Assembly: GCA_041694815.1 (NCBI GenBank)
Contig: JBGFSC010000045.1
Span: 35,807 to 99,806, forward strand
Length of the DNA stretch: 64,000 nt
DNA from: Elusimicrobiota bacterium
GTDB lineage: Bacteria; Elusimicrobiota; Elusimicrobia; UBA1565; JACRDR01
Direction of reading: 5' to 3'
The translations under genes and the position numbers were made by a program. The notes beneath the pieces are model-generated. The model searched no databases and was not told the origin of the DNA. It saw nothing but the letters and a program-made list of their open reading frames with translations. Below, piece by piece: positions 2,655 through 8,726 of the stretch (positions within the stretch are counted from its first letter, which is position 1; each line of letters starts with the position of its first letter).

Positions 2655-3742
2655 TTCTTTCCTCCCATTGGGACCGTCGCGAGCTCTTTGATCCTCTGGC
2701 GGATCGCCTTAAGCCCATCACGAAGTTTTCCGATCTCCAGCTCGGCCAAGGCCGTCCACGATCTTGTCCCGAAGGCCTCGAAGACCAGGTCGGTCTTGAT
2801 TTTCTTGTCCTCGGAGGATTGGCCGGGGAAGGCCGAGAGCAGCTCGCCCTGTATCTCCTCGAGGAGTACTTCTTTCTGCCGCCGCTGCTCGTAGAAGTTC
2901 TCCTCGGAGCCCTTCTCAAAGAGCTTGGTCGAGTCCTTGTCGGTGACTACGCCCACGTGCTCGCCGCCGATATTCAGGTAGTCGAACACGGGCTTGAAGT
3001 TCTCAAAGGTCGGATTGACGAAGCGTTGGCCCTCGATGCGCGAGGTCCTATCCTTGAGCACGATAGCCACGTGATCCCAGAGCTTGGCTTCGACGGCCTT
3101 GTCCTGGTTCTCGCGCCGGTCGCGGATCATCTCGATGAGCAGAGAGGGCTCGTAGCCCATATCGGTCTCGGCCTTCATCTTGGTGCCCGTCTTTTCCAGA
3201 ACCTTGGCTCCGGCTTCGTCGGTGAAATAGTCGTACTCGTAGCCGGCCCGGCCGCACATGACGATGTGGACGCGGCTGTTGAGGTAGAGGTCCGTAAAGC
3301 CGGCCCAGGTCTCCTTGAGCGGCCCCCAGTCTTGGAACAGAAGCCGCTTGCGGTTGTTGGCCTTCATGTAGGCCCGCTGCAGCTCGGTCCAGAAGTGCGA
3401 GATGCTGTCGATGATGAGCACCCCAGCGTTTCCCTCCGCGGCCTTGACCCCATCGACTAGATCGGTGAAGGCCCGGCTCTTGGAGACATAGAATGGGATG
3501 TCCCACTCCTTGAACTTGGGGACCAGGAAGTCCGAGCCCGTCTCGGTGTCCAGGAAGAACACCGGTTTCTTGGCCTTGAGCCTCTCTACGATGCCCTTGG
3601 CCATCAGGGCTGCGGTGTAGGTTTTGCCTGCGCCGGCGAATCCGAGGAGGCCTGCTTTGAGATAGGCCTGTTGGTTGACCGCCTCCTGGAACGGCCCGAA
3701 GGCGACCGGCGGCTTGCTTGCTCCGTTATTTGTCGTTTCCAT
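2651..3742 (-). CDS. Phage AAA-family ATPase (AAA_24 / Sak4-like)
   Basis: Walker A GFAGAGKT, LDTETGS, Walker B VLIIDSISH; RBS AGGAG. Confidence 0.8.
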   Translation of the reverse strand: METTNNGASKPPVAFGPFQEAVNQQAYLKAGLLGFAGAGKTYTAALMAKGIVERLKAKKPVFFLDTETGSDFLVPKFKEWDIPFYVSKSRAFTDLVDGVKAAEGNAGVLIIDSISHFWTELQRAYMKANNRKRLLFQDWGPLKETWAGFTDLYLNSRVHIVMCGRAGYEYDYFTDEAGAKVLEKTGTKMKAETDMGYEPSLLIEMIRDRRENQDKAVEAKLWDHVAIVLKDRTSRIEGQRFVNPTFENFKPVFDYLNIGGEHVGVVTDKDSTKLFEKGSEENFYEQRRQKEVLLEEIQGELLSAFPGQSSEDKKIKTDLVFEAFGTRSWTALAELEIGKLRDGLKAIRQRIKELATVPMGGKK

Positions 3743-3899
3743 TTTTCTCTCCTGTTGGTTTGGGTGATTCTTCGGCCAACAAATCCTTGAGCTGATCGCT
3801 TTCGGCCAGGTGCAAGAACCCGGCGGCCAAGACCTCGGCTAAAGCGTCCATGCGCTGCTCCGGCGTCATGTCCTTGGGATCGGCGAATGGGGGAATCAT
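3726..3899 (-). CDS. Small hypothetical protein (57 aa), first gene of the leftward replication operon
   Basis: Hand-translated: MIPPFADPKDMTPEQRMDALAEVLAAGFLHLAESDQLKDLLAEESPKPTGEKNGNDK. It lies directly behind the conserved box at 3905-3941. Confidence 0.6.
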   Translation of the reverse strand: MIPPFADPKDMTPEQRMDALAEVLAAGFLHLAESDQLKDLLAEESPKPTGEKNGNDK

Positions 3900-3904
3900 G
3901 CTCT

Positions 3905-3941
3905 CACCAATGGAGAGCCCCGCGCTGTCAAAAGTGGCGAA
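3905..3941 (-). promoter_or_regulatory. Bipartite box copy A (TTCGCCACTTTT-N8-GGGGCTCTCCATTGGTG), putative promoter for the element-encoded sigma factor
   Basis: Identical 12-bp and 17-bp blocks with the same 8-bp spacing recur at 6029-6065. ATG lies 5 nt downstream. Confidence 0.65.
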
Positions 3942-3944
3942 ACC

Positions 3945-4463
3945 CTAGTCGAGCAAGCCCTTGGATTCCAAGAGCCTCTTGAGCTTTTGCACGTGGTAAT
4001 CGACGGTCTTTCTCGGCCGCCCGAGACGGCGCGCGGTCTTGGCCACGTCGCCTTCCTCTAAAAGGAGATCCCAGAGGCTCTTTTGCTCCTCGCTGAGTTC
4101 CTGGTAAATCTCAAGCAGCCTCTCTTGGAGATCACCCTCCTCGCGATCCGATTCTGAAAGCAGCTCTTCAAGTCGGATCTCGCCCTCTTTACCCTCGGTC
4201 ATGCCGCGCTCGAGGGAAACGAGCACTTCCCGCCGGCGTGACCACACCGCGATCCGCCTCTCCGCCTTGCGCAGCAGCGATAAGGCGAGATAGGTCTTCC
4301 AATCCTTGATCGCATTCGTTTTCTTGCTCTTGATCTTGAGCAGGTGAGCGCAGAGCTCCGACTCGAGATCATCCGGATCTGCTTGGCGTGCGAATTTCTT
4401 CACTACGTTGCGGACCAACTCCATCTCCCAGACTTCGATTTCCGGCGTGCAACGTTCGTCCAT
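3945..4463 (-). CDS. Sigma-70 family (ECF-like) RNA polymerase sigma factor
   Basis: Region-2-like DPDDLESEL...WKTYL and region-4 HTH LSEEQKSLW...VAKTARRLGRPRKTVDYHVQKLK; RBS GAGGAGG. Confidence 0.75.
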   Translation of the reverse strand: MDERCTPEIEVWEMELVRNVVKKFARQADPDDLESELCAHLLKIKSKKTNAIKDWKTYLALSLLRKAERRIAVWSRRREVLVSLERGMTEGKEGEIRLEELLSESDREEGDLQERLLEIYQELSEEQKSLWDLLLEEGDVAKTARRLGRPRKTVDYHVQKLKRLLESKGLLD

Positions 4464-4506
4464 GGCGGCCTCCTCGGCCGACCACGGACAGGCGTTTTCT
4501 GGGCAT

Positions 4507-4555
4507 AAAAAAAGAGGCCGCTCGGCCCGGTGTTAACCGGAACCGAACGGCCTCT
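4507..4555 (-). terminator. Intrinsic terminator/attenuator upstream of the sigma factor gene
   Basis: Minus strand: AGAGGCCG-TTCGG-TT-CCGG-TTAACA-CCGG-G-CCGAG-CGGCCTCT followed by a T-tract. Confidence 0.75.
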
Positions 4556-4630
4556 CGTGGCTCAGCGCGTCTCTAGGACGCCCTGCCCGTAGTCAGCCTA
4601 CTGTTGAATTATGAATTACGGGCAGTTTGT
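4507..4630 (-). ncRNA. Putative structured cis-acting leader RNA (three hairpins)
   Basis: Perfect 9-bp stem 4583-4591/4617-4625, 5-bp stem 4567-4571/4577-4581, and terminator stem 4513-4555. Confidence 0.5.
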
Positions 4631-4651
4631 CCCTATCACTGGCGTTGAGCT

Positions 4652-5104
4652 CTACTTTTCCTCTTCGAAAGGAAGCAGCGCGTTGGGCGGCCTCTCGTTG
4701 TTTGAGTCAGCCACCATCGACGCCGAATACTTCGGAAGAGAAGCTATGTCCTTCAAAACGTAAACCTTGCAGACGCCCTTGAAGGCGTTGGGCGCGGAGC
4801 GGCTTAAGCGCGAATGGTCCCAAGAAATCGGCACGCCGTCTTGAACCTTGATCTCGTGGATAATACCCTGCGGAAAGGACTCGTCTAAGAAATCGCGGAA
4901 CTCAAGCCACGGCGCCGGCAGATTTTGCCACTCGAAATAAACAGGCTGCGAGATCTCGGCGCCGCGCTTGATGTTGCGCGACCAGTCATTGCAGAAAAGC
5001 GGGGTGCGCTGGAAAATGGTCGTGTCCCTCACTACGCCGAAGCCCACGTCCTGGCAGAAGTGGATGTAGGACAGAAATAGCCTTCTCTTTTGCTCGACGT
5101 CCAT
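4652..5104 (-). CDS. Hypothetical two-repeat protein, candidate antitermination factor
   Basis: Internal repeat FCQDVGFGVVRDTTIFQRTP / FLDESFPQGIIHEIKVQDGVP, directly upstream of the structured RNA and terminator. Confidence 0.55.
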   Translation of the reverse strand: MDVEQKRRLFLSYIHFCQDVGFGVVRDTTIFQRTPLFCNDWSRNIKRGAEISQPVYFEWQNLPAPWLEFRDFLDESFPQGIIHEIKVQDGVPISWDHSRLSRSAPNAFKGVCKVYVLKDIASLPKYSASMVADSNNERPPNALLPFEEEK

Positions 5105-5120
5105 CGCGGCGACCCCTGCG

Positions 5121-5765
5121 TCACTCGAAATCTTTAAGAACCTTGATGACCCTGCCTAAAATACGGAAGTCCTTGATCTTTTCCCTGGGAACCCGGATAT
5201 CCGAGAACTTGGGATTGGCGGCCTCGAGCACGATCTCGCTCCTTTCCTGCCGGAACCGCTTGAGCGTCCAGTCGCCGTCAACGACGGCAATCACGAGTTG
5301 CCCGCTCTCAGCGGTCTCCTGAGGTCGGACCAAGACCCAGTCGCCGAGGTTGATACCAGCCCCGGTCATACTTTCACCCCTGACCCGGATCACGAAAAGC
5401 TCCTCATCCCGCCGGGACTTGAAAAATCGCCGGTCGATCACGGCCGTGCCTTCCACGAGCTCCGGCATGGGTCTTAGCGGGCCCGCAGGAACACCGGAGG
5501 GCAACTCACGGAGCAGGAAGGTATTCGGCGAAACAGGGCTCTCGTCAAAAGGGTTCACGAGAATGGACAGCCCGCGGAAGCGCCCCGTGATCTTGAGAAA
5601 CCCTTTCCGCGACAACTCCTTGAGCTGGTAGGCGATGGCGCCGGTCGAGGCCAGGCGCGCGCCGGCCATGATCTCGCGGACCGCCGGCGTGCGCCCTTCG
5701 CGGCGGACATAGTTGACAATGAAACGCAGGATCGCGGCCTGGCGCTCGCTTAGAGTCTCATCCAT
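5121..5765 (-). CDS. lexA: LexA-family transcriptional repressor (winged HTH plus S24 peptidase)
   Basis: LSERQAAILRFI...P.VREI N-domain, cleavage site VPAG, catalytic VRGESM and TLKRF. Confidence 0.85.
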   Translation of the reverse strand: MDETLSERQAAILRFIVNYVRREGRTPAVREIMAGARLASTGAIAYQLKELSRKGFLKITGRFRGLSILVNPFDESPVSPNTFLLRELPSGVPAGPLRPMPELVEGTAVIDRRFFKSRRDEELFVIRVRGESMTGAGINLGDWVLVRPQETAESGQLVIAVVDGDWTLKRFRQERSEIVLEAANPKFSDIRVPREKIKDFRILGRVIKVLKDFE

Positions 5766-5952
5766 TGACTTCGTCCAGGGTGTAACGACGCATCTGGACC
5801 CCCCCTGAAGTCGGGTGCACGAATCTCAGATTGATGTGCTTGGGAACGGCGGGCTGATTGCCGGGTTCGGTCACCAGCTCCAGGTTTAGCTCAAGCTTCT
5901 CTTGGCAGCAGGGACAGGTCGTCGTTTCCGGGCTTTGGTTGGTTTCAGGCAT
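5758..5952 (-). CDS. Small hypothetical protein (CPCC motif)
   Basis: 64 aa with strong RBS AAGGAGG; overlaps the lexA start. Confidence 0.6.
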   Translation of the reverse strand: MPETNQSPETTTCPCCQEKLELNLELVTEPGNQPAVPKHINLRFVHPTSGGVQMRRYTLDEVNG

Positions 5953-5969
5953 GGCGGCCTCCTTTTGAA

Positions 5970-6006
5970 TTAGGACAAGTTAGGACATTTAGGCTTCAGC
6001 TGTCAA
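5970..6006 (-). promoter_or_regulatory. Sigma70-type leftward promoter overlapped by TTAGGACA direct repeats
   Basis: Minus strand TTGACA (6006-6001)-N18-TAACTT. TTAGGACA occurs at 5970 and 5980, with a partial TTAGG at 5989. Confidence 0.55.
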
Positions 6007-6028
6007 ATTCCTCGTCGGAACACCTCGA

Positions 6029-6065
6029 TTCGCCACTTTTTGACCTTAGGGGCTCTCCATTGGTG
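6029..6065 (+). promoter_or_regulatory. Bipartite box copy B, putative promoter for the element-encoded sigma factor
   Basis: TTCGCCACTTTT-TGACCTTA-GGGGCTCTCCATTGGTG; ATG lies 6 nt downstream at 6072. Confidence 0.65.
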
Positions 6066-6071
6066 GAGGGC

Positions 6072-6374
6072 ATGATGCGAAACGCGATACCCGGCGGTTT
6101 CCTGTACCGCTTCACCGTCTTGACGCCGAGATCCGAAGGGTTGCTCCGGTCTCTTTTGAAGTTGGCGTTGGCCGAGACCGAGGTGGTCTTTGGCAAGACC
6201 AAGGTCAAGCTTGAGACCGCTTACGACTTTTCAGCCAAGGGGCCGGTCTGCACCGTCGAGGGCGGCACCGACTGCGGCGAGCACCTCGCCAAATTGCTCA
6301 CCGGCTTCCTGATCAAGAAGTTCGGTGAGGATGGGTTTCAGGTCGAGAGGCTCTCCCGGCGGGGACAGGGTTGA
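6072..6374 (+). CDS. Mobile-element hypothetical protein
   Basis: 100 aa ending GFLIKKFGEDGFQVERL; coupled to the next gene (TGATG). Confidence 0.65.
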   Translation: MMRNAIPGGFLYRFTVLTPRSEGLLRSLLKLALAETEVVFGKTKVKLETAYDFSAKGPVCTVEGGTDCGEHLAKLLTGFLIKKFGEDGFQVERLSRRGQG

Positions 6375-6889
6375 TGACGGCGCGGCCCGAGACCTGTCCG
6401 ACCTGTGGCCATAGGATCAAGGTAGGCGTCAAGACCTTCGAGGGCTTCATGGCTCATCTCTTTATCGTCGCGGTCAAGCTGTCCAAGGATGCCGAAGTCG
6501 AGTGGCGTGCGGATCGGGCCGACGCCAAAAGCCGGGTCAAGAAGGCGTTTCTCCGCGACGTCGTGTTCTCGAAGGATGTGCGCGATGCCGGTTATGCCAC
6601 CCGCTACGCGCGGCTCGGCGATCTCAAGTATTGGGGCTTGTTGCGCCAAGATCCGGAGCATTGGCATCAGGGTATCTATCAGCTCACCGACCTGGCTATG
6701 GATTTTCTCTCGGGTCTGGCGACTGTCCCGAAGCGATTGAAAGTGACCGGCGGCAAGGTGCTCGAGGTGTCTGAGGAACAAATCGATCTTCGCTCGGCAT
6801 TGGGCGGGAAATGGAATGAGATCGCGGACTGGATTACGGATTGGCGGCGCCGGCACGTGGAGGAGGGCGGGCAGGGGATGCTGTTTTGA
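6374..6889 (+). CDS. Phage hypothetical protein (CPTCG knuckle, possible winged-helix)
   Basis: CPTCG...DLKYWGLL...GIYQLTDLAMDFL pattern. Confidence 0.6.
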   Translation: MTARPETCPTCGHRIKVGVKTFEGFMAHLFIVAVKLSKDAEVEWRADRADAKSRVKKAFLRDVVFSKDVRDAGYATRYARLGDLKYWGLLRQDPEHWHQGIYQLTDLAMDFLSGLATVPKRLKVTGGKVLEVSEEQIDLRSALGGKWNEIADWITDWRRRHVEEGGQGMLF

Positions 6890-6970: not shown

Positions 6971-8689
6971 ATGGCGCCGAGCGTTATTACCGAAGAGAAG
7001 AACAAGATCGTTCAGATCGCCGTCTATACCCGCAAGTCAAACGACGAAAATTTGGCGGGCGAGGTGACCTCGCTGGATAGCCAGAAGGGAGCCTGCCGAG
7101 CGTACATCGCCATTCAAAAGGAAAAGGGCTGGCGGGAGTACACCGAGGCCTTCGACGACCCCAACGAGTCCGGCAAGAGTTTGAACCGTCCCGCCATGCG
7201 CCGGCTGCTTAATGCGGTGGAGGAGGACAAGATCCAGGGCGTGATCGTCTATAAGCTGGATCGGCTCACGCGCAACAGCCGGGATTTCCACCAGCTGCTC
7301 GAGCTTTTCGAGAAGCACAACGTCGCCTTTGTCTCGGCCACGGAATCCATCGATACCAAGAGCCCGCAGGGACGCCTGATGACGGCGATCATGGTCCAGT
7401 TTGCCCAGTACGACAGGGAAATGGACGTGGAGAGATCCAAAGACTTCCACCTGGCCCGGGCGCGCAAGGGGCTGTGGTCGGCGGGGCTGCCACCTTTGGG
7501 CTACGATTTCAAGGACAAGCAATTGGTCGTCAACCAGGAAGAAGCTGCGCTGGTGCGCAGAATCTTCGACCTCTACCTCGAGCGCCGCTCCGTGCTGCGC
7601 GTAGCCGAAGAGCTCAACCGCCTTGGGTTTCGGCGCAAGAGCTACAAGCTCAAGGATGGGAGACTGGTCGGGGGAAAGCCCTTTGACATCAACAGCGTCA
7701 TCCGCATCCTGCAGCGCAAGGTCTATATCGGCATCATCACCAACGAGCGCACCAAGCAGGAGTTTTCGGGACAGCACCAGCCCATCATCGACCCCGCCGT
7801 CTTCGAAAAAGCCCAGGAGATTCTTAAGTCGCATGCACGGCGGGAGGGGCAGATCACCTACGCGACCAATAGGCACGGCTTCCGGCTCAAAGGTCTGACA
7901 CGCTGCGGGGAGTGCGGCAGCTCGGTGGCGAGCGTGGCCCGGCCCCGAGGCGACAAGAAGGTCTACCTCTACTACAAGTGTCTGGCCAAGCAGAACGGGC
8001 TTCCTGTTGGTTGCGTCTTCACCAGCATCGGCGCGCAGAAGCTCGAGGAGTACGTGATCGAGAAGCTTGCGGCTGTAGGCTGGGACCGGCCGCTTCTGGA
8101 GAGGGTGGTCCGGAAAGTCAACGAGCTATCCCGCGGACGGGTCGCCCCGCTTGAGGAAGAGAAGCGCCAACTTTCAGGCAGGCTCCAAGGACTGCGCGGG
8201 GAGATCGGCAACCTGATCGGCCTGGCCAAGGCCCAGGGGGCGAACCAGGAGCTGACGCAGGAGCTGGGCCGGCTGGACGAGGCCAAGAGGACCCTGGAGG
8301 CGCGGCTGCACGAGATCGAGGCCGAGATCGGGCGCGGCCGGCAGGTTGTCTACGACGCGGACGTGATCCAGGGCGCCCTCCAGCGCTTCGCCCGGTTCAT
8401 CTACAAGCTGCCGATCGAGCGTCAGGTCCAGACGATCCAGCTTTTGGTGCAGCAGGTGACGCTTTTCAAGGACCGGGTCCGGGTAGAGCTCCACGAGCTG
8501 CCGATCCCGGACCTCCAGAGGGCCCTGGATGCCAGGATCGCGCAGCGTGGGATTCTGGAGCGAAAATTTCCAATCCCGCGGTGCTCAAACGGCGGGAGCA
8601 AAATACCACATGCCGAGCGAACAGGCGTTGTGGAATTGGATAAAGAGTGGCGGGGTCGACGGGATTTGAACCCGCGGTCTCCGCCTTGA
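6971..8689 (+). CDS. Large serine recombinase (integrase)
   Basis: Catalytic AVYTRKS, SGKSLNRP, VYKLDRLTRN, recombinase domain (PPLGY), zinc ribbon (CGECG...YYKC) and coiled coil. Confidence 0.93.
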   Translation: MAPSVITEEKNKIVQIAVYTRKSNDENLAGEVTSLDSQKGACRAYIAIQKEKGWREYTEAFDDPNESGKSLNRPAMRRLLNAVEEDKIQGVIVYKLDRLTRNSRDFHQLLELFEKHNVAFVSATESIDTKSPQGRLMTAIMVQFAQYDREMDVERSKDFHLARARKGLWSAGLPPLGYDFKDKQLVVNQEEAALVRRIFDLYLERRSVLRVAEELNRLGFRRKSYKLKDGRLVGGKPFDINSVIRILQRKVYIGIITNERTKQEFSGQHQPIIDPAVFEKAQEILKSHARREGQITYATNRHGFRLKGLTRCGECGSSVASVARPRGDKKVYLYYKCLAKQNGLPVGCVFTSIGAQKLEEYVIEKLAAVGWDRPLLERVVRKVNELSRGRVAPLEEEKRQLSGRLQGLRGEIGNLIGLAKAQGANQELTQELGRLDEAKRTLEARLHEIEAEIGRGRQVVYDADVIQGALQRFARFIYKLPIERQVQTIQLLVQQVTLFKDRVRVELHELPIPDLQRALDARIAQRGILERKFPIPRCSNGGSKIPHAERTGVVELDKEWRGRRDLNPRSPP

Positions 8690-8726
8690 CAGGGCGGCGT
8701 GTTGGGCCAGGCTACACCACGACCCC
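8648..8726 (-). tRNA. tRNA-Asp (GTC)
   Basis: Cloverleaf GGGGTCG...CCGCC-CTGTCAA-GGCGG...GGTTCAAATCC...CGACCCC-G-CCA. Confidence 0.95.

Follow-up and report, generated by a model that had tools for sequence, protein, structure and literature searches.

The 64,000-nt stretch of an Elusimicrobiota bacterial genome analyzed here (G000:C6:35807-99806, hereafter the window; the genome, G000, is 2.77 Mb and 97.8% complete) contains at positions 3899-6072 a compact set of genes that, judging from its surroundings, is the regulatory end of a siphovirus-like tailed prophage of ~37 kb adjoining a tRNA-Asp gene. We propose, with somewhat better than even confidence, that this region of a temperate siphovirus encodes an induction cascade leading from SOS to sigma, with a terminator and a masked start codon as its gates. 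The minus strand carries, in order, a TTGACA hexamer, TGTCCTAA repeats, p64, LexA, p150, a 188-nt intergenic region, a 172-aa gene, box A and p57, followed by AAA_24, DUF669, RusA and further genes, and the plus strand carries box B, p100, p172 and a serine recombinase. Within this arrangement we observe the identities of a LexA-type repressor and a sigma factor, an intrinsic terminator, a hairpin that masks a start codon and a pair of boxes unique in the genome, together with a layout that is conserved in related loci and box sequences that co-vary by lineage.

In the proposed cascade, a sigma70-type promoter (P_lexA, with its -35 at 6006-6001) would drive an immunity operon comprising p64, a self-cleavable LexA-type repressor and p150, and the repressor probably binds the pair of TGTCCTAA repeats that cover the -10 and start site of its own promoter. 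Because the repressor would bind its own promoter, expression of the immunity operon in the lysogen is proposed to be low and self-limited. Transcripts would end at a very strong intrinsic terminator (4556-4507), and on the rare read-through RNA the sigma start codon would be buried in a hairpin of -26.6 kcal/mol. The phage-owned, extracytoplasmic function (ECF)-like sigma factor would target the twin boxes, TTCGCCA-N17-CTCT, as its only two promoters in the genome, one leading to the replication and morphogenesis genes and the other to p100, p172 and the serine recombinase. DNA damage, through activated RecA, would cleave the repressor and leave the promoter fully open; enough RNA would then extend beyond the terminator and become unmasked to yield sigma, which would switch on the replication and recombination genes together. 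Here we infer four steps, namely operator binding, RecA-dependent cleavage, recognition of the boxes by sigma and the overcoming of the terminator and mask.

The 172-aa protein on which this cascade turns is encoded at 3945-4463 on the minus strand, and we consider it very probable that it is a divergent sigma factor, specifically an ECF-like member of the sigma-70 family with sigma2 and sigma4 regions, in agreement with the original prediction, made from the DNA letters, which had a sigma factor at this position. The protein matches the model TIGR02937 with an E-value of 1.4e-10 over residues 15-167, corresponding to model positions 12-163 of 165, and the same model is matched by all 15 of the 15 sigma family members at E<=0.001, subsets of which also match other ECF models. 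In an AlphaFold model with a predicted local distance difference test score (pLDDT) of 72.8, residues 1-76 superpose on sigma2 (Z 7.4-7.7, root-mean-square deviation (rmsd) 1.9-2.6), as with 8b3z (Z 7.7) and 3ugo (Z 7.4, rmsd 1.9), and residues 100-172 superpose on ECF sigma4 (Z 8.3-9.0, rmsd 2.6-2.9 over 67-72 residues), all with Z values in the range that the comparison tool calls middling. Nearly all of the top 50 Foldseek rows for this model are sigma factors, and a homolog with 52% identity is named a sigma-70 family factor by NCBI; another sigma of the family, P0008, shows 74% identity.

Two bipartite boxes are the putative targets of this protein. Box A (3905-3941, minus strand) lies within a 37-nt conserved block and consists of TTCGCCA (-35-like), 17 nt and CTCT (-10-like); it starts 4 nt past the sigma stop codon and ends 5 nt ahead of the ATG of p57. 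Its inverted twin, box B (6029-6065, plus strand), is located 22 bp from the -35 of P_lexA and ends 6 nt ahead of the ATG of p100 (6072). The two boxes match perfectly over 17 nt as an inverted repeat and also share an upstream half of 12 nt, and the pattern TTCGYCACTWTT-N11-13-CTCT has two matches in the window compared to none in 100 shuffles, these being also the only two in the entire 2.77-Mb genome. Box A heads the replication operon and box B the p100-p172-serine-recombinase operon, which bears out the earlier description of two matching boxes ahead of the replication and rightward operons. Comparison across related loci shows that the spacer varies in sequence and is constant in length, with CTCT placed 17 nt after CA in seven of eight boxes of family 1 (the window together with L013, L014 and L017, four loci with three distinct leader versions) and 18 nt after it in the remaining one, a spacing of halves that would resemble that of ECF -35 and -10 elements. 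The upstream half has the core TTCG(C/T)CA in most lineages and the downstream half is lineage-specific (CTCTCCATTGG, GTCTCTGTA, TTCGTCTTTA). Because the two copies agree within a locus and differ between lineages, the pattern is one expected of a recognition protein that is specific to each lineage and reads a bipartite site of the -35/-10 type, and from their sequences the box pairs fit promoters specific to the sigma factor.

A third, weaker box-like site occurs at G000:C6:27277 on the minus strand, where TTCGCCAGTTTT is followed by CGTC after a 17-nt spacer. The site, ~8.5 kb to the left of the window, is inside a 240-aa open reading frame (ORF) that precedes the genes for the head protease and capsid; since chance alone would produce ~0.3 sites of this kind per 45 kb, it could be fortuitous or a late promoter.

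The arrangement extends well beyond the window. In a sample of 401 genomes of the phylum, nine had a sigma homolog, and neither sigma nor p100 had a tblastn match in 50,697 GenBank phage records. We read the gene context in 15 related loci, 13 of which hold the sigma gene and 11 of which are distinct (L036 duplicates L032, and L038 appears to duplicate L028); two of the relatives are Elusimicrobia metagenome-assembled genomes, and L036 and L037 are IMG/VR viral contigs. LexA lies upstream of and co-directional with sigma in 10 of the 11 distinct loci, the conserved order being LexA, a variable slot, the leader, sigma and p100, with p100 immediately behind sigma and its box in 13 of 13 related loci with sigma. 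The LexA-sigma order is thus conserved among homologs; p150, for whose homologs the original prediction proposed a co-occurrence search, is replaced in the slot by other genes in relatives. In the relatives a second, inverted box, where present, is situated upstream of LexA within the divergent region and faces a p57-like gene and the recombinase: counting the window and 12 related loci, both halves are present in nine (window, L013, L014, L029, L030, L031, L032, L036 and L037), one half in two (L017 and L027) and neither in two (L028 and L033).

Several results weigh against reading the 172-aa protein as a sigma factor and the boxes as its promoters. Its score of 41.0 bits falls just below the curated TIGR02937 cut-off of 42.9; the protein itself has no Pfam sigma-domain match, and among its 15 relatives Pfam finds only Sigma70_r4_2, in three, and Sigma70_r2, in one. 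The Foldseek E-values for the model are all >= 0.03, a six-frame search of the genome with TIGR02937 gave six places, none of which is the 172-aa gene, hhalign comparisons with two host ECF sigmas gave probabilities below 1%, and a sequence profile search of the PDB with the sigma alignment returned no sigma factor and only chance-level matches. With regard to the boxes, their proximity to the ATGs would leave a very short leader, and with just two of them ~34 kb of late genes would have to depend on one promoter or on unseen ones.

Such results could instead point to a helix-turn-helix (HTH) activator that, as a classical transcription factor bound at the boxes, brings in the host holoenzyme in the way that PrtN and phage late activators do, an explanation we regard as unlikely. 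The sub-cut-off score and the insignificant hhalign comparisons are compatible with it, as are the protein's own Pfam matches, which are to generic HTH families only (HTH_30 at E 3.2e-5 and two weaker ones), and in the L031-type lineage the two box halves are alike (TTCGTCA and TTCGTCT), as those of a direct-repeat binding site would be. An activator of this kind does not account for a full-length hidden Markov model match that crosses both sigma regions and is common to 15 of 15 relatives, nor for the superposition of both domains on sigma2 and sigma4 and a Foldseek list made up almost wholly of sigma factors. In addition, the window shows no -10 hexamer of the sigma70 type after either box, and the box halves appear to be spaced like ECF elements. 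We retain a sigma factor as the very probable identity of the protein.

Between p150 and the sigma gene lies the 188-nt intergenic RNA, whose overall fold has a z-score of -8.26. The roughly 120-nt multi-hairpin region described in the original prediction is sustained as a whole fold; its first hairpin taken alone is not. That hairpin (4583-4625, minus strand), formed by segment S0 (4625-4617) with part of S1, is weak and of non-conserved register, with a z-score of -1.54 that is not significant given that 17 of 200 shuffles fold as well. The intrinsic terminator predicted to end at 4507 is confirmed (4507-4556, minus strand): a 20-pair stem at 4556-4514 containing an inner CCGG hairpin folds at -37.5 kcal/mol (z -8.61) and is followed by U7 at 4513-4507, and it is kept in four of four family-1 loci with one compensatory pair. 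Downstream, segments S2 and S3 form a masking hairpin (4457-4490, minus strand; z -5.06) in which the sigma AUG (4463-4461) is paired in the stem and the Shine-Dalgarno sequence GAGGAGG (4475-4469) is distributed between loop and stem; 94.6% of cells are paired. This conserved hairpin, predicted from the sequence to bury the sigma start codon, appears to be a further lock, one that the earlier description missed. Among the three distinct versions, identity reaches 79-88% in the 3' part of the leader, compared to 62-79% for the flanking genes.

The RNAalifold consensus also offers an alternative structure, in which S1, a 17-nt segment (4598-4582, minus strand) complementary to S2, pairs with S2 (4492-4476), the 5' arm of the masking hairpin. 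The S1:S2 pairing has 98.5% of cells paired in four sequences, and the masked and S1:S2 structures show 96-98% paired compared to 30-53% when slid. The masked state is favored in the window (-103.4 versus -92.1 kcal/mol) and the two states are equal in L017. Weighing against these structures, covariation in the window leader is not significant, the observed value being reached by 75-81 of 500 shuffles of the four sequences, because the family-1 leaders vary so little. An Rfam search of 3700-6300 found no family at gathering score, nut/put-like elements included, a search of four related loci returned nothing at gathering score except one tRNA in L031, and the exact leader motif had no match in IMG/VR.

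A tentative further reading, which we think possible but rather doubtful, is that the leader acts as a two-state RNA gate through which sigma synthesis would rise steeply and non-linearly with the activity of the immunity promoter. The S1:S2 pairing could arise in cis on the read-through RNA, or in trans if the abundant 3' end of the terminated repressor transcript paired with S2 in the manner of a small RNA derived from a 3' untranslated region, and commitment to lysis would occur only if promoter derepression, terminator escape and RNA unmasking coincided. As part of this reading, the same principle may recur, by means of a different RNA, in a second phage lineage beside a small zinc-ribbon protein.

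The RNA of that second lineage lies upstream of sigma in seven loci (L027:6573-6719(-), L028:6639-6783(-), L029:5844-5992(+), L030:5829-5974(+), L031:5868-6014(+), L032:6616-6763(-) and L033:5771-5912(+)). It measures ~145 nt, matches no Rfam family and is composed of a pair of hairpins, a conserved unpaired stretch and a terminator, with 73 invariant columns; in a longer alignment the leader resolves into P1, P2, the terminator and a ribosome-binding-site hairpin, with 52 pairs of which 11 are compensatory. A covariance model of this leader (R1) matched L013 and L014 weakly, at 22-25 bits, and gave no match in the window intergenic region at E<=10. Because R1 misses the window leader, we treated the two leaders as separate, and because the second-lineage leader is distinct, a terminator and a masked start ahead of sigma would represent a common design reached from two different RNAs. 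A zinc-ribbon gene lies upstream of the second-lineage RNA in six of the seven loci, directly or with an intervening ORF. By eye and uncounted, the loop of the inner terminator hairpin looks complementary to the loop of the ribosome-binding-site hairpin, and the two change together between loci.

The original prediction placed a different agent at this step, describing p150 (4652-5104, minus strand; 150 aa) as an antiterminator-like, two-repeat protein. In that three-tier model, p150, with or without p64, would bind the leader RNA and bring about active antitermination past 4507, which we judge quite unlikely. Its position is suggestive: p150 sits immediately upstream of the leader, both are conserved in the three closest loci, the 3' part of the leader is better conserved than the neighboring genes, and a similarly placed zinc-ribbon protein precedes a structured leader in the second lineage, where a protein-RNA partnership is conceivable. 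The protein itself lacks any tie to antitermination. It is an orphan without a match in Pfam, PHROGs or NCBIfam; of 101 genomes of the order, three (G000 among them) have a homolog, as does one metagenome contig; it has three matches at E<=0.001 among 1.84 billion representatives, one of them spurious; and an alignment search of IMG/VR found no relatives. The spurious match, P0005 (670 aa), is a repeat protein aligned over a 30-residue stretch, and plant-transposase look-alikes in the ESM Atlas were disregarded as low-recognition. The structure model of p150 is unusable (pLDDT 40.8), and a predicted complex of sigma with p150 scored 0.00, which gives no verdict either way. Nor is an internal repeat significant: the best self-alignment scores 19, a value equaled or exceeded by 457 of 500 shuffles. 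Moreover, p150 would already be present in the lysogen because it is co-transcribed with the repressor, and the Rfam search gave no nut/put-like match in the leader.

The slot between LexA and the leader also speaks against a conserved antiterminator. Family 1 holds p150 there, and six second-lineage loci hold a 57-84-aa CxxC...CxxC zinc-ribbon protein, which stands alone in L027 and L030, is preceded by a 98-aa ORF in L029 and is followed by larger genes in L031, L032 and L028; in L033 the slot is occupied by an XRE-like protein together with proteins of 347 aa and 109 aa, the latter cysteine-rich. When seven slot proteins from relatives were tested, the five zinc-ribbon proteins matched generic zinc-ribbon models, all below cut-off, and the two longer proteins gave no match; the Com family model was unmatched by these five, and the window has no such gene. 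Because the slot is variable and p150 lacks homology, p150 is, on the sequence comparisons, probably cargo of the immunity operon expressed in the lysogen and not a component of the switch. Of the three-tier model, the first tier, an S24/LexA repressor, and the third, sigma with twin promoters, agree with the domains and with the conserved order; of the second tier, the terminator and conserved leader stand and antitermination by p150 lacks support.

At the head of the cascade is the 214-aa LexA-type repressor (5121-5765, minus strand), which was described as LexA-like at the outset and which its domains and catalytic residues mark as a genuine member of the class. The N-terminal winged-helix DNA-binding domain matches PF01726 (E 2.8e-15, residues 3-60), the C-terminal peptidase S24 domain matches PF00717 (E 2.3e-23), and the whole protein scores 140.8 bits against TIGR00498, for which the cut-off is 110.95. 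An Ala-Gly cleavage site and a Ser/Lys dyad define the LexA motif, and the cleavage site VPA94-G95 and the dyad residues in GES132M and TLK169R are all present. Across nine LexA homologs, G95 and K169 are invariant and the serine is kept in eight. The exception is the LexA of L013 (L013:3591-4235(-)), which has Cys at the nucleophile position (GDCM) instead of Ser, and in L031 and L032 the cleavage site is Leu-Gly instead of Ala-Gly; because of these substitutions some relatives' LexA proteins may cleave differently or not at all. The host genome encodes RecA. In G017, the genome that carries L028 with its LexA-less version of the module, no LexA match is seen.

The repressor gene is preceded by a plausible promoter. 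The -35 hexamer of P_lexA is a perfect TTGACA (6001-6006, minus strand) with the same layout in L013, L014 and L017, and the likely -10, TAACTT (5982-5977, minus strand), is weak and separated from it by an 18-nt spacer; the relatives have better -10 hexamers, TAAACT and TAGAAT, at 17 nt. The promoter originally placed at 6006 is partly upheld, by its TTGACA and by its conservation in relatives. A strong -10 is not found, and P_lexA is absent from the list of a consensus promoter scan. Two direct TGTCCTAA repeats, 10 bp apart (5970-5987, minus strand), overlap the -10/start region. TGTCCTAA occurs twice in the whole window, both times at P_lexA, TGTCCT-N4-TGTCCT occurs once in the genome, at lexA's own promoter, and the repeat is kept in L013, L014 and L017, which makes these repeats a candidate operator for the repressor. 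The first gene of the operon, p64 (5758-5952, minus strand; 64 aa), is the small protein anticipated ahead of the repressor: it carries a CPCC...H...H pattern, has no family match in Pfam, PHROGs or NCBIfam, overlaps the LexA start with its stop codon (ATGGATGA) and has a homolog of 56% identity in L017, L013 and L014 being without p64.

Further points count against the cascade as a whole. LexA usually uses a palindrome, and the window operator would be a direct repeat, TGTCCTAA-N2-TGTCCTAA, over the -10; in the relatives L030 and L032 a palindrome is located between -35 and -10. Because repressor and sigma share a promoter, induction would raise repressor synthesis too. In L028, moreover, no LexA gene adjoins the sigma module.

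One might also suppose that SOS repression in the cell is the main task of the prophage LexA, as a captured or replacement host gene, and that its link to sigma is incidental read-through control. The prophage LexA is the sole S24/LexA match in this nearly complete genome, LexA is present in 24 of the 31 genomes searched (G000 included), and the protein scores as a true LexA equivalog. We nonetheless consider this improbable: the candidate operator is found once in the genome and at its own promoter, another genome (G023) has the same module plus a second LexA match elsewhere, and the LexA-to-sigma order recurs in most distinct loci, viral contigs included.

The genes behind the boxes differ in placement between the window and its relatives. 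In the window, p57 (3726-3899, minus strand) is the first gene behind box A, and p100, a conserved phage protein (6072-6374, plus strand), lies behind box B, followed by p172 (phrog_2693; 6371-6889, plus strand) on the recombinase side. Relative to this, the positions are swapped in all relatives, the comparison being made with L013, L014, L027 and L030, which have p100(-p172) after sigma and p57 directly upstream of the serine recombinase. Because of this swap, exchange of cassettes at or near the inverted boxes is suggested. A bolder claim, that the twin boxes are themselves recombination sites at the ends of an invertible or exchangeable cassette, or else repressor operators, is very improbable: the boxes do form inverted repeats that bracket the regulatory module, with the swap and an adjacent serine recombinase in its favor, but only the box halves are conserved and the spacer differs between copies, unlike a crossover core, each box is always just upstream of and pointing into a start codon, and the enzyme is a large serine integrase beside tRNA-Asp.

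No protein of the module is better conserved than p100, which has 44-71% identity to the window's copy across loci in which sigma has 24-53%, and its gene invariably comes first after a box. In the ESM Atlas its neighbors are three clusters, of 375, 129 and 113 members, made up of unnamed and mostly viral proteins. Because p100 directly follows an ECF-like sigma, its position raises the question of whether it might have an anti-sigma or feedback role.

The element as a whole was originally labeled a prophage or an integrative and conjugative element (ICE), and the gene content selects the former. The contig upstream carries, all on the minus strand, a replication initiator, a DnaC-like loader, terminase, portal, protease and major head proteins, as well as head-tail adaptors, a tape measure and tail proteins. 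Because of these tail, head and terminase genes and a recombinase that abuts tRNA-Asp, we take the element to be a tailed prophage rather than an ICE. The recombinase is a large serine integrase (6971-8689, plus strand; Pfam Resolvase, Recombinase and Zn_ribbon_recom), and its final ~14 codons are overlapped by the tRNA-Asp gene (8648-8726) on the opposite, minus strand. The L013 contig terminates in the same recombinase C-terminal motif as that of the window. Because of this overlap and the end of the L013 contig, the attachment site is apparently located within the 3'-terminal part of the integrase gene. A long attachment-site (att) direct repeat of the tRNA-Asp region was not found in C6:1-20000; a 15-mer candidate there sits within tail genes and was taken as chance. 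Just beyond the tail genes, a 2109-aa ORF (L001:3-6329(-), equal to G000:C6:3-6329) runs off the start of the contig, and an excisionase-like HTH gene (L001:7114-8079(+)) neighbors it.

Parts of this design resemble known switches. The lambda CI/Cro/N type combines a self-cleaving S24 repressor, autoregulation, a terminator before the lytic genes and SOS induction. Here the repressor is instead co-directional with and upstream of the lytic regulator, an orientation correctly remarked upon in the original prediction; no Cro-like or N-like gene was found in Pfam and PHROGs scans, and beyond the terminator the next step would be a sigma factor acting at promoters of its own instead of antiterminated transcription through the lytic operons. 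A buried start codon that is opened is known from the rpoS leader, opened by DsrA and RprA, and from Mu, where Com unmasks mom translation. The likeness lies in a regulator's start codon buried in a leader hairpin and opened by alternative pairing or a zinc protein; the difference is that the competing S1 segment is here on the same transcript, upstream of the terminator, and that a zinc-ribbon gene occurs in relatives only.

By analogy, the closest known logic would be that of PrtR-PrtN, followed by element-borne group V sigma factors. In the Pseudomonas aeruginosa pyocin system, a RecA-sensitive S24-type repressor, PrtR, restrains a single positive regulator, PrtN, which switches on phage-tail-like lysis genes at repeated cognate sites (PMC13114513). 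To that extent the two share an S24-type repressor over a single dedicated activator with repeated cognate sites. Unlike PrtN, the regulator here belongs to the sigma-70 family and is encoded downstream of the repressor gene in the same unit, behind a terminator and a mask, and in a complete prophage it would act on the operons for replication and the recombinase. The group V sigmas TcdR, UviA, BotR and TetR are carried on mobile elements, some of them phage- or plasmid-borne, and they are likewise small, divergent, element-encoded sigma-70-family factors with their own specificity and a handful of promoters (PMC4885068). The present factor, likened to them by description, differs in its Elusimicrobia host, in its putative targets, which are phage replication and integration genes, and in its proposed control by a LexA operon, a terminator and an RNA mask. 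The temperate phage GIL01 is reported to have a LexA-centered switch with a phage LexA homolog and a small accessory protein, in which the phage relies on host LexA and gp6 is, per title, a late-gene activator (PMC6182141, PMC4551915). By that comparison, the prophage here differs in having a full LexA of its own, with intact cleavage site and dyad, and in that a sigma factor would do the activating. No description of a LexA-terminator-sigma prophage module was found in the literature searched.

Lysis-lysogeny switches have been detailed for few phage types, and none is known in such detail for Elusimicrobia. In the region studied here, one lytic master regulator would be secured by four locks: its promoter is repressible, the terminator is strong, the start codon is masked and the sigma factor is private, with only two promoters. 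The repressor is positioned upstream of the activator within one transcription unit. If the proposed cascade is true, it would represent a natural conversion of an SOS signal into a sigma-factor decision within a complete prophage, would supply a sigma/promoter pair that is compact, orthogonal and equipped with its own threshold, and would add two candidate new cis-regulatory RNA leaders.

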